Shown here one piece after another: positions 6,615 through 64,000 of a DNA stretch of 64,000 bases (its first letter is position 1; each line of letters starts with the position of its first letter). The notes under the pieces are model-generated. The model was not told the origin of the DNA. It was given only the letters and a program-made list of their open reading frames with translations, and did not search any database. Source of the stretch: Candidatus Bathyarchaeota archaeon (GTDB taxonomy: Archaea; Thermoproteota; Bathyarchaeia; 40CM-2-53-6); the NCBI GenBank assembly GCA_963833125.1, contig CAWHWX010000007.1, positions 26,486 to 90,485 of the forward strand, in the 5' to 3' direction. Made by a program: the position numbers and the translations under genes.

Positions 6615-7088
6615 ATGGATTTCAAAGTCAAGCAAGACACGTACAATCCGCTTCTCAAGCGGAAAGAAGTTAGCATTGAAATCGACCATGATAGCCAAGG
6701 CACCCCGTCGAGAGTAGACTTGAGAAAGGCGGTTGCGTCAAAATACAATACCAAGCCCGAGAACGTGTACGTGGTAGATGTCGAAACGCGAACCGGGACG
6801 CAGAATTCCGTATGCTCTGTAGAAGTCTATGACGATGCCGAAACTGCGAAGCAAACGGTCCGCAAATACATTCAGACTCGCAATCTTCCTCCTGAAGAAC
6901 GAAAGAAAGTAAGAGAGCAAGAAGCAAAGAAGGAGGAACCGAAACCCGAGAAACCTAAGGCCGCGAAACCCGCTGCTGAAGCTAAAGCTGCCAAGCCTGC
7001 TGAAGAAGTGAAGGAAGCTAAACCAAAACCGGAAGCTAAACCCGCGGGTGAGGCGCCAAAGAAAGGCAAAGATGGTGAGACAAAGTGA
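6615..7088 (+). CDS. rps24e: 30S ribosomal protein S24e with a long K/A/E/P-rich C-terminal extension
   Basis: NPLLKRKE, TPSR and VYDD motifs. Confidence 0.95.
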   Translation: MDFKVKQDTYNPLLKRKEVSIEIDHDSQGTPSRVDLRKAVASKYNTKPENVYVVDVETRTGTQNSVCSVEVYDDAETAKQTVRKYIQTRNLPPEERKKVREQEAKKEEPKPEKPKAAKPAAEAKAAKPAEEVKEAKPKPEAKPAGEAPKKGKDGETK

Positions 7089-53244: not shown

Positions 53245-55460
53245 GTGCCACGTTACAAGTCCACAACGGAAATACAGAAGATCATAGCGAACAAGGAACA
53301 GATCCGAAAGACGTAGACTAGTCCGCGTCCGGAACATATGGGCATCATCGCCCACGTCGACCACGGTAAGACGACGATGAGCGATTCCCTCCTTGCCGCT
53401 GCCGGGCTTCTGTCGCCAGGGATGGCTGGTACAGCGCTAGCCCTCGATTACATGGAGGAGGAGCAGAAGCGACAGATGACCATCAAAGCCGCCAACGTAA
53501 GCCTTCTTCACGAGCGTAATGGCACGCCCTACGTCATCAACCTGATCGACACGCCCGGCCACGTGGACTTCTCAGGCCGAGTAACACGCTCCCTCAGAGC
53601 CACGGATGGAGCCGTGGTTGTAGTTGACTCCGTTGAGGAGATTATGGTTCAAACCGAGACGGTTACCAGGCAGGCACTTGAAGAACGGGTTCGGCCCTGT
53701 GCTCTACATAAACAAAATCGACCGTCTCATCAAAGAGTTGAGATTAACCCCCGACCAAATACAGGAGAGGATCGGGAGGATTATCACAGAATTCAACCGA
53801 CTCGTCGAACTCTACGCGGAACCCGAGTACCGGGAAAAGTGGAAAGTTAGTTTCGCAAGCAATACAGTTGCAATGGGATCCGCAAAGGACAAGTGGGGAT
53901 TCAATGCGGAGATCGCCAAAGAGTCGAACGTAAGGTTCTCCGACGTGGTCGACGCCTACCTGAACGACAAGATAACGGAACTGACCACAAAAGCGCCTTT
54001 GCATGATGCCGTTCTGAACATGGCGGTTGAAGCCATGCCTCCCCCACACGTTGCGCAAAGATATCGCGTTCCGAGGGTTTGGAAGGGGAACATTGACAGT
54101 GAGGTCGGCAAGGCTATGCTCAACTGCGATGACAACGGCCCAGTAGTTATGGCCATAACGAACATCGTCGTCGACCCACAGGCTGGAATTGTGGCGAGCG
54201 GTAGATTATTTTCGGGTACGATTACGGAGGGGTCAACATTCCACCTTCTTGGCGCCCCGCGTGGACCAGAGAGTTCAACAGGTGTGTATTTTCATGGGAC
54301 CCTACCGAGAAATCGTGGGGACCATAAGCGCGGGCAACATTCCAGCCCTTCTAGGGCTTGAATCAGCTAAGGCCGGTGAGACACTTTCAACCATCAAAGA
54401 CATTGCACCCTTCGAAGCGGTTCACTACGTCACCGAACCAGTCGTTACGATGGCGGTAGAGCCGAAATTTAGCCGAGATCTGCCGAAGCTCGTTGAAGTT
54501 CTAAGGAGACTGAGCCTCGAGGACCCGAACTTAGTTACCAAGATCAACGAGGAGACCGGGGAATACCTCATTGCAGGAATGGGGACTCTCCACCTGGAGA
54601 TTGCAAACACCCTGATCACCAAGACGGGGCTGGAGATTGTAACCTCCAAACCCATCGTAATCTACCGCGAGAGCATAAGAGGCCCCGCTGGACCGGTTGA
54701 AGGCAAATCGCCGAACAAGCACAACAAAATCTACCTCAGCGTCGAACCCCTACCCGACAAGATTGTGAATATGATAAAGGAGGGGAAGATCGGCGAATAC
54801 CAAGACAAGCACGAGATGGCAAAGATTCTGCGCGAAGAAGGATGGCCCCCCGACGAGGCACGTGGGGTTTGGAGCGTGGATGAGGGAAGCAACATGCTGG
54901 TAGAGGTAACGAAGGGAGCGCAATATGTTCAGGAAGTGAAAGACATGGTCATAGCAGGGTACCGATGGGGCTTGAAAGAAGGGCCCCTCGCCTATGAACA
55001 GATCCGGGGAATCAAAGTGAAGATCACGGACGTATCCCTGCACGAAGACCCAGTCCACAGAGGACCCGCCCAAATTATGCCCATGAGCCGACGAGCATTC
55101 TTCGTAGCATTCCTCAACGACAACCCCGTCCTCCTAGAACCAATTCAGAGGATCACCGTGAAGGTTCCACCCGAACTCTTAGGAGCCGCAACAAGCGTGA
55201 TCTCGCAGAAGCGAGGCAAGATCGTATCCGTAGACCAACGAGGACACTTAGTTTACGTGGTCGGCGAACTGCCCACAGCGGAAAGCTTCGACCTATCCGA
55301 GGTTATGCGAGGCGCCTCCCAAGGAAGAGCGTTCTGGGGACTGGAATTCGCACATTGGGCCCCCGTCCCACAATCCTTGGTCAACACAGTTATCTCTGAC
55401 ATACGAAAACGCAAAGGACTGTCACCCGAACCACAGAAAGTAGAAGACTTCATGGAATAG
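53245..55460 (+). CDS. fusA: Elongation factor 2, with a 27-nt BHB intron and two apparent 1-nt insertions near 53697 and 54257
   Basis: GTG-PRYKST...KEQIR|[34 protein letters not shown] and diphthamide loop HEDPVHRG. Confidence 0.96.
53309..53335 (+). other. Bulge-helix-bulge intron in EF-2 mRNA
   Basis: Central helix UCCG(53303-06)/CGGA(53330-33), 3-nt bulges AAA(53307-09) and ACA(53334-36), inner helix GACG/CGUC; contains an in-frame TAG; removal gives CGA AAT ATG (R-N-M). Confidence 0.88.
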
Positions 55461-63019: not shown

Positions 63020-63758
63020 TGTTCTGAAGTTTCGTTCCGAGGCAAAACGACGGTTCATGAGCTTCTCGAAGCGAAATTTCAAGGTTGATTCGCCAGATGA
63101 TTTGGCTGCAGCTGCTTTAATCAGAAGGCCCAATGACGAACTCCATGAATATCATAACTTCCTCGAAAAGCATCTTTATCGAAAACTCAAGACTAAACAG
63201 AAGACTTCATGGAATAGGCTAGAAGCAGTCATACAACGTTACAATAAATGCTTTAAACTCAAAACAATGGCCATACTTAGGAAGAAATGGCAAGGCCAAT
63301 CGAAACCCTCCTCTCACTCCCACGCGTTCGCCTGATCGACAGAGTCCCCATTATCGAAACAGAGGAGTACGTCAGAAGATTCATTCATCGGATCGAGACC
63401 CAGCCCAGATTGGTGCAAAGATCACTGCAGGTCTCAAACGAGTCTGCAAAGCAATTCTCCGCCGACGATAAAGGGCTCTCAACTATGCTCGATGAACTCA
63501 ACAGCGCTGAGTATGTGGTTACAAGGAATTCAAAGCGCATCATGGAGGGCATGCTGAGTGAGATTTGTGCTGACGGGACAAATCTTCAAAAACTTCGAGC
63601 AGAAGATCGAGCCGCTCTGCGAGATCTCACGGTCGCTCCTTGATGCATCCAATCTCGCCGCAAACCTAGCAGACAGAGCTAAGGAAGATTCCGTTGATGT
63701 AGCCAGGGCCTTGCTGATCGACCTCCCAACACACCCACCAAACCCCACCGGACCCTGA
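63020..63758 (+). CDS. Hypothetical protein, broken into three ORFs
   Basis: Three consecutive overlapping + strand ORFs with helical, protein-like composition; no family recognised; start approximate. Confidence 0.4.
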
Positions 63759-63817
63759 GATCGTTACATTCCGGAGCGGTCGTGAGGCTTTTATTTAGTT
63801 GATAGGATTCGGGACTT

Positions 63818-63995
63818 GCGGCTGTTGTGCTGGCCTCCGAGTGCGAGAGCTGCGTAGATGCTCCGCTTAGCCGTGGTCCAGATCCCCGTGGCTTCAAGGG
63901 GAGGACTGCCTGGTCTATGACGGGGGCTTCCCAAGCCTCAAAGCTGCCTCGACGGCAGCGAGGGAACCCGGGTCCCAATCCCGGCGGCCGCACCA
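63818..63995 (+). tRNA. tRNA-Gly(CCC) with three BHB introns (63826-63874, 63882-63908, 63942-63965)
   Basis: Spliced product GCGGCUG-UG-GUCCAGCCUGGUCUAUGAC-G-GGGGC-UUCCCAA-GCCUC-AAAC-CCGGG-loop-CCCGG-CGGCCGC-A-CCA; TATA-like TTTTATTTA about 25 nt upstream. Confidence 0.9.
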
Positions 63996-64000
63996 ACAAT

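Follow-up and report, generated by a model that had tools for sequence, protein, structure and literature searches.

A three-intron tRNA-Gly(CCC) gene in soil Bathyarchaeia and the predicted position of its first intron

The locus and its relatives

The gene described here lies on the plus strand at positions 63818-63995 of the window, that is, of the whole 64-kb stretch of DNA that was analysed (positions 26486-90485 of contig C7 of genome G000), and it ends 5 nt from the contig end. An earlier note on this DNA had read the locus as a tRNA-Gly(CCC) gene interrupted by three BHB introns, and re-reading the letters confirmed the sequence as well as the place of every helix that it had named. 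When the four exons of that reading (63818-63825, 63875-63881, 63909-63941 and 63966-63995) were joined in silico, ARAGORN recognised a tRNA-Gly(ccc) of 78 nt with an encoded CCA, and because of this product we regard the core observation as real. Judged from its sequence, this is a real gene for tRNA-Gly(CCC), with three predicted BHB introns, the splicing of which we infer. The unspliced locus was not matched by ARAGORN with its intron option either on or off, and the program reported 0 tRNAs in the whole 64-kb window. Rfam searches gave no match at gathering scores and, at E-value thresholds, only chance-level matches at the unspliced locus. An open reading frame on the minus strand (63679-63999) was rejected as a gene, since from one species to another the introns differ in length by numbers not divisible by three.

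The second and third introns have exact BHB geometry, with a 4-bp helix and 3-nt bulges on opposite strands. Intron 2 (63882-63908, 27 nt) interrupts the tRNA at position 15/16 and shows the central helix GUCC/GGAC, the bulges AGA and UGC and the inner helix UCCCC/GGGGA. Intron 3 (63942-63965, 24 nt) lies at position 45/46, with the central helix CCUC/GAGG, the bulges AAA and GAA and the inner helix GCUGCC/GGCAGC, and its motif appears even in the unconstrained MFE fold. Between the two lies exon 3 (63909-63941, tRNA nucleotides 16-45), which carries the anticodon CCC at 63930-63932; exon 4 (63966-63995, nucleotides 46-76) includes the T-loop and the encoded CCA (63993-63995). BHB motifs are cleaved after the second base of the bulge, and applying this rule to the locus gave register-exact cloverleaves. 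The 4-bp helix and two 3-nt bulges that mark archaeal BHB introns were found in all three motifs of the gene, and their removal leaves a canonical cloverleaf.

Using the 178-nt stretch as a DNA query over 41 genomes (G000 and 40 relatives), we recovered the complete gene with its introns from 17 of 22 genomes of the same genus (g1), at 76-93% identity. The other genomes of g1 contain either a partial, defective copy (G003) or T-arm matches only (four genomes, 75-89% complete). A Gly-CCC gene with introns is also present in 5 of 10 genomes of genus g14, where the first intron has the same layout as in g1. In an alignment of 18 sequences (A1), the exons are almost invariant and the intron loops vary in sequence and length. 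The plus-strand TATA-like box TTTTATTT (63789-63796) lies 21 nt upstream of 63818; an A/T box is found 21-24 nt upstream in A1, and it is equally spaced in the same-genus homologues and in g14.

The helix cells of A1 are paired in 93.3% of cases, compared with 35-53% when the partners are slid, and 8 pairs have changed on both sides. The central helix of intron 2 is fully paired in 20 of 20 sequences, at intron lengths of 19-35 nt; that of intron 3 is fully paired in 15 of 18 and keeps 3 of its 4 pairs in the remaining 3. The inner helices of intron 2 co-vary, and compensatory changes occur in the inner helices of both introns, the lengths of which differ across relatives. Conserved exons, variable introns and helices kept by compensatory change are likewise as in archaeal BHB introns, and both introns hold exactly as the earlier note had drawn them.

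Across 301 genomes of the class, a pattern search confined the D-loop interruption to the family of g1, g2 and g3, plus one probable chance match elsewhere. Within the family it was found in 9 of 13 sampled in g1, 15 of 19 in g2 and 1 of 3 in g3, and the gap was never zero. The sets of introns differ between genera: those of g1 are at 3/4 (or 8/9), 15/16 and 45/46, g14 has the same first two and one in the anticodon stem, with none at 45/46, and g2 and g3 have an uninterrupted 5' end and introns at 15/16 and 37/38. Such differences fit a turnover of introns within the family; for this lineage, the earlier note had proposed active intron gain. The Thermoproteales, to which the earlier note had pointed, are not the lineage concerned: because the public records with the same gene are Candidatus Bathyarchaeia or Bathyarchaeota, we assign the host and its relatives with this gene to the Bathyarchaeia.

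The copy in our own genome might be decaying or silent, either as a pseudogene or as an assembly-damaged gene. Its T-loop carries a C57 that is seen in none of 22 relatives, the gene lies next to the contig end, the EF-2 frame of the same assembly contains single-base shifts and the G003 copy looks degenerate. The promoter box, all three motifs and the exon bases other than position 57 nevertheless match those of the 22 relatives. Moreover, searches of this 88%-complete genome turned up no second Gly-CCC gene, and hence none of the intact intron-less kind that the earlier note had named as evidence against its reading. We consider decay or silence of the gene most improbable. A search of sequencing runs for words of the locus returned 0 RNA runs and three DNA runs, each with small shares of the words.

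Several loop bases are unusual across the 23-sequence comparison used below (our own gene, 17 others of genus g1 and 5 of genus g14). The T-loop at 63972-63978 reads UCCCAAU in our own gene and UCCGAAU, UCCAAAU or UUCGAAU in relatives. Nucleotide 55, usually U, is C in 20 of the 23 Gly-CCC genes, and also at 7 of 42 T-arm sites of our own genome, including that of Gly-UCC. The anticodon loop is CCCCCAA, with C33 for the near-universal U33, in 4 of the 23 (L017 of G001 and L198-L200 of g14).

Position of the first intron

The first intron can be drawn in two ways. The earlier note had placed a 49-nt intron (63826-63874) at position 8/9, with GGCU/AGCC as its central helix, exon 1 at 63818-63825 and a 7-nt micro-exon, GGUCCAG, as exon 2; the hairpin inside it would then be mere intron structure. 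Within this 49-nt stretch, alignment A1 holds a nearly invariant block, GAGUGCGAGAG ... CUCC(R)(Y)U, which is itself a BHB. This nested motif (63840-63870) has the central helix AGUG/CGCU, the bulges CGA and UAG and the inner helix GAGC/GCUC. The 5' strand of its central helix, AGUG (63840-63843), is made of three leader bases and G1 and pairs with CGCU at 63864-63867. The corresponding intron (63846-63869), 24 nt long with a 9-nt loop, would lie at position 3/4, between an exon 1 of tRNA nucleotides 1-3 only (GCG, 63843-63845) and a 12-nt exon 2 of nucleotides 4-15 (63870-63881). Comparison of the sequences suggests that the first intron is probably this nested 24-nt intron at 3/4 and not the 49-nt intron at 8/9.

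Folding of the products is compatible with either reading, as ARAGORN recovered a Gly(ccc) cloverleaf of 78 nt from 18 of 18 sequences whether the first intron was removed at 3/4 or at 8/9. After 3/4 splicing, the tRNA starts at the second copy of the 5' strand and has 7 Watson-Crick acceptor pairs in all 18. The readings predict different nucleotides at tRNA positions 1-8, namely GCGGCCGU for 3/4 and GCGGCUGU for 8/9, so that position 6 of our own tRNA would be C in the former case and U in the latter.

Comparison between species separates the two. The 3/4 cut joins GCG to GCCGU and so restores the 5' end that genera g2 and g3 have uninterrupted, as GCGGCCG-U-G, at 16 of 16 loci; our own Gly-GCC and Gly-UCC genes are alike in this. 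Across the 23 sequences, GCG and GCCGUGGUC(C/U)AG are invariant, the acceptor stem rebuilt by 3/4 splicing is fully Watson-Crick and nucleotide 8 is always U. In contrast, splicing at 8/9 would leave U at nucleotide 8 in 12 sequences, A in 9 and G in 2, which makes it a purine in 11 of 23. The exon bases of the 8/9 reading vary at positions 5, 6 and 8 (positions 5-6 are UC in 15, CU in 5 and CC in 3), whereas the bulge GU and the internal GCG that it assigns to the intron are invariant in 23 of 23. We surveyed nucleotide 8 at the 42 sites of our own genome that have a T-arm, an acceptor strand and CCA, of which 39 could be matched over the full 5' strand. U8 is present at every real 5' end listed, and A8 occurs only in two spurious alternates.

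The two candidate motifs also differ in structure. The central helix of the 3/4 motif is fully paired in 22 of 23 sequences and comes in 8 types, its outer pair switching between A-U, G.U and G-C. The intron-side bases of its bulges vary freely (A in 14, U in 8 and C in 1; AG in 17, UA in 3 and GG, AA and AU in 1 each), which mirrors the undisputed introns 2 and 3, and in the 23-sequence comparison intron 1 measures 18-24 nt in relatives. The helix GGCU/AGCC claimed for the 8/9 intron does exist: it is paired in 21 of 23 sequences (bases 3-6 with 52-55) and shows one compensatory switch, U-A versus C-G, in our own clade. It is broken, however, in 2 of 5 sequences of g14, and an inner helix adjoining it is missing, with 0-1 bp in 16 of 18. 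The mean cost of forming the motif is 6.0 kcal/mol for the 3/4 BHB, 2.8 for BHB 2 and 1.5 for BHB 3, compared with 17.8 kcal/mol (range, 12.7-22.8) for the 8/9 BHB, and the 3/4 motif is the cheaper one in 18 of 18 sequences. When the 43 variable bases were shuffled 20000 times, 143 of the shuffles produced a nested acceptor-restoring BHB whose inner helix had 3 bp or more.

Ordered splicing, which the earlier note had proposed on the ground that the first two motifs share bases, is not needed, because the 3/4 reading sets these motifs 5 nt apart; all three BHBs can then coexist in one fold, in which the first copy of the 5' strand is paired with the 3' strand.

Two further points favour the 8/9 reading: its exon 1 begins with the first copy, which is conserved and stands at a normal promoter distance, and an 8/9-type motif on acceptor bases 3-6 seems, by eye, to be present in a Leu-like gene of our own genome (contig C9), at a cost of 5.6 kcal/mol. 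Weighed against the variable nucleotide 8, the high motif cost and the broken helices, they leave the 49-nt intron and its micro-exon unlikely in our view.

For the 3/4 reading, in turn, the promoter is a difficulty. The distance from the start of the TATA-like box to the proposed mature 5' end is about 54 nt, whereas in about 19 other tRNA genes of our own genome, read by eye, the box starts about 27-47 nt upstream. From the box to the first copy it is about 29 nt, which is an ordinary spacing and equals that between the box and the true 5' end in g2 and g3. A second difficulty is that RNAalifold pairs the conserved spacer GGCU with RGCC (bases 52-55), a pairing that would leave the 3/4 motif with a 3' bulge of 2 nt. 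The outer helix of this motif is also weak.

Other ways to draw the region were tried and discarded. Taking the spacer GGCU as central helix, with an exon ending in GGCUGG, would call for A1/A2 or U1 and breaks down in 5 species or more. Reading the helix-bulge-helix as a kink-turn was rejected because the bases after the bulge are Watson-Crick paired.

It is also conceivable that both motifs are used, so that two isodecoders with different acceptor stems result and both copies of the 5' strand stay under selection. Both copies are indeed conserved and both in-silico products fold. On the other hand, nucleotide 8 of the 8/9 product would be A or G in 11 of the 23 species, bases 52-55 are contested between the two helices and the literature that we searched contained no precedent. 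We therefore judge dual use to be very unlikely.

The 5' leader and a model of processing

Under the 3/4 reading, the stretch 63818-63842 would be a 5' leader of 25 nt, which contains what had been taken for exon 1 (63818-63825). Its first 7 bases, GCGGCUG (63818-63824), form a pseudo-acceptor strand complementary to the 3' acceptor strand CGGCCGC, and they pair with that strand both in the RNAalifold consensus and in the MFE fold. Leaders are 23-28 nt long in the 23 sequences, and their positions 8-11 vary freely. The first copy itself reads GCGG(C/U)(C/U)G in 23 of 23, positions 1-4 and 7 being invariant and positions 5-6 always pyrimidines. Since it is conserved as an exon would be, the 3/4 reading needs an extra role for this copy. 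Modelling of the fold suggests that it may act as a placeholder, or decoy. We put forward tentatively, as one possible account, that the 7-nt pseudo-acceptor holds the 3' strand, and with it a tRNA-like fold, for as long as the intron divides the genuine 5' strand into 3 + 4 nucleotides, and that it is the domesticated remnant of a 5'-fragment duplication of the kind seen in Caldiarchaeum. With the 5' strand split in this way, 5' maturation by RNase P would have to wait for splicing.

Between the decoy and the first BHB, two genera share a conserved spacer, GGC(U/C)GG (63828-63833); its bases are complementary, in g1, to the CCAGCC of the D-arm once intron 2 is removed.

In the G003 copy (L019), neither the decoy strand nor the GAGUGCG block is present, CCGUGGUCC is duplicated, and both the anticodon stem and the intron 3 helix contain mismatches. 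This copy is probably decaying or misassembled. Its single valid splice solution is of the 3/4 type, with U2, and we gave this solution no weight because the copy has several defects. A separate 5' half was sought in G003 and in the four other genomes that lack the gene, where 11-mer matches stayed at chance level and none was leader-like.

Taken together, the data are best explained by a functional tRNA-Gly(CCC) gene of soil Bathyarchaeia with three protein-spliced BHB introns at 3/4, 15/16 and 45/46, a reading of the sequences that we consider likely. Transcription would start near 63818, and the first 7 bases of the transcript would serve as the pseudo-acceptor that pairs with the 3' acceptor strand as long as the real 5' strand is split. 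The last three leader bases and G1 would pair with the 3' part of intron 1 and thereby form the 4-bp central helix of the first BHB. An alpha/beta-type endonuclease would cut after the second base of every 3-nt bulge in all three BHBs, and RtcB would ligate the four exons of 3, 12, 33 and 30 nt. The rebuilt 5' strand, fully Watson-Crick paired, would then displace the decoy, and RNase P would take off the 25-nt leader. This model of the transcription start, the cleavage sites, the order of steps and the role of the decoy builds on the observed motifs with their conservation and covariation, on the in-silico products and on the enzyme genes present.

These enzyme genes include two EndA paralogues in our own genome (C34:61065-61622 and C14:18721-19293); PF01974 and PF02778 match both of them and nothing else. 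The 185-aa product of one is alpha-like: it aligns over its full length with the alpha subunit of Aeropyrum pernix (3p1z_B; E value, 8e-40), with an extra loop and with Tyr, His and Lys in place, which we take to be the catalytic residues. The second paralogue, of 190 aa, has a gap at the His, and its best matches are the archaeal catalytic-type chains 5x89 and 1a79. Two paralogous genes with N- and C-terminal domains, one with the presumed catalytic residues and loop and the other lacking one of these residues, are what an (alpha-beta)2 enzyme predicts. The subunit architecture, which the earlier note had proposed to determine, is thus by sequence of the alpha/beta type, the type of endonuclease that is linked to relaxed or non-canonical introns. 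As in the crenarchaeal (alpha-beta)2 endonuclease (A. pernix 3p1z), there are two paralogous genes and the alpha subunit aligns end to end; in contrast to it, the enzyme here is known from its genes, and the second subunit is nearest to 5x89 and 1a79 rather than to a solved beta chain. RtcB was matched with 574 bits and RNase P RNA with 178 bits in the same genome.

Known systems and other genes of the genome

Multi-intron tRNA genes are already known, and the bare finding is ordinary for specialists. Excerpted text of two reports gives three introns per tRNA gene as the maximum in Thermoproteales (PMC4033280; PMC8450103). The gene resembles those of Thermoproteales such as Pyrobaculum and Thermofilum, for which the excerpts describe up to three BHB introns per gene, non-canonical positions, an alpha/beta-type endonuclease and relaxed motifs without one flanking helix (PMC4033280, PMC4090602, PMC8450103). 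It differs from them in belonging to Bathyarchaeia and in the predicted placement of the first intron in the acceptor stem, with a helix built from leader bases. According to the excerpt on tRNAscan-SE 2.0, the program extends candidates by 60 nt of flank and so catches introns near tRNA ends (PMC8450103); motifs that reach into the flanks are therefore a recognised case.

In the available part of a 2026 preprint on Asgard archaea, up to five introns per tRNA gene are reported, and acceptor-stem insertions are few and grouped as 'other'. Like the genes described there, most tRNA genes here are interrupted, D-arm introns are common and missed by standard tools, and positions have been gained repeatedly within families. 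The Asgard archaea are another phylum, however, and the available part of that preprint makes no mention of leaders. The tRNA-Thr(GGU) of Caldiarchaeum subterraneum, as described in the excerpted report, is interrupted at 24/25 and at 45/46 and is preceded by a separate fragment of its own 5' region (PMC3293823). It shares with our gene the 45/46 intron and a partial second 5' copy upstream of a working gene, and by analogy its fragment suggests how a duplicated 5' strand could arise. There, the fragment lies beyond a 1.9-kb mobile insertion, with no action in the same transcript proposed in the excerpt, whereas here a copy of 7 nt, conserved in both genera, is placed 18 nt upstream. A literature search on Bathyarchaeota or Bathyarchaeia and tRNA introns found no paper.

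The gene is thus of a known kind, and it would be new provided that three features predicted from sequence comparison hold, namely the intron at 3/4, the motif built from leader bases and the decoy. Multi-intron tRNA genes are carried by a whole family of soil Bathyarchaeia. If the 3/4 reading is true, the mature exon 1 is only 3 nt long and the splice motif depends on the 5' leader, which would fix the order as splicing first and RNase P second. Conservation of a decoy 5' strand in two genera would add a new kind of element to tRNA precursors. For annotation, the locus is a warning, as a single gene offers two equally foldable splice solutions that only interspecies comparison separates.

The earlier note had also linked the tRNA introns to an intron in EF-2. 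The EF-2 frame (53317-55460 of the window) breaks twice, through an extra base at 53698 and through a 1-nt shift within 54252-54259, in a C-rich run. At these two sites there are single-base shifts and no inserted sequence, so that the link is not supported there; the breaks look like assembly indels or real frame shifts, not introns.

Other tRNA genes of the genome are interrupted as well. In an automated census combining BHB searches with ARAGORN, 6 of 103 candidate regions fold without splicing, a figure to be read with the limits that ARAGORN accepts too many false cloverleaves, that the filter misses relaxed motifs and that only two simple counts were used. On the minus strand of contig C9 (about 6770-6960) lies a tRNA-Leu-like gene with an apparent 28-nt intron at 8/9 (GGGG/CCCC), another at 15/16 and additional insertions, which may bring the total to four; this was read by eye, and automated splicing gave no solution. 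Its paralogue on contig C5 has the 15/16 intron and lacks that at 8/9.

The Gly-GCC gene of our own genome, spliced in silico, gives a Gly(gcc) of 78 nt; it has canonical motifs at 15/16 and 45/46, and its third insertion is 26 nt long. This three-insertion tRNA-Gly(GCC) is present in three near-identical copies (C6:3370-3707 and C29:4446-4783 on the minus strand and C18:125669-126006 on the plus strand), which may be strain copies or real repeats, the contamination estimate being 7%. Other tRNA 3' ends of the genome also occur in threes.
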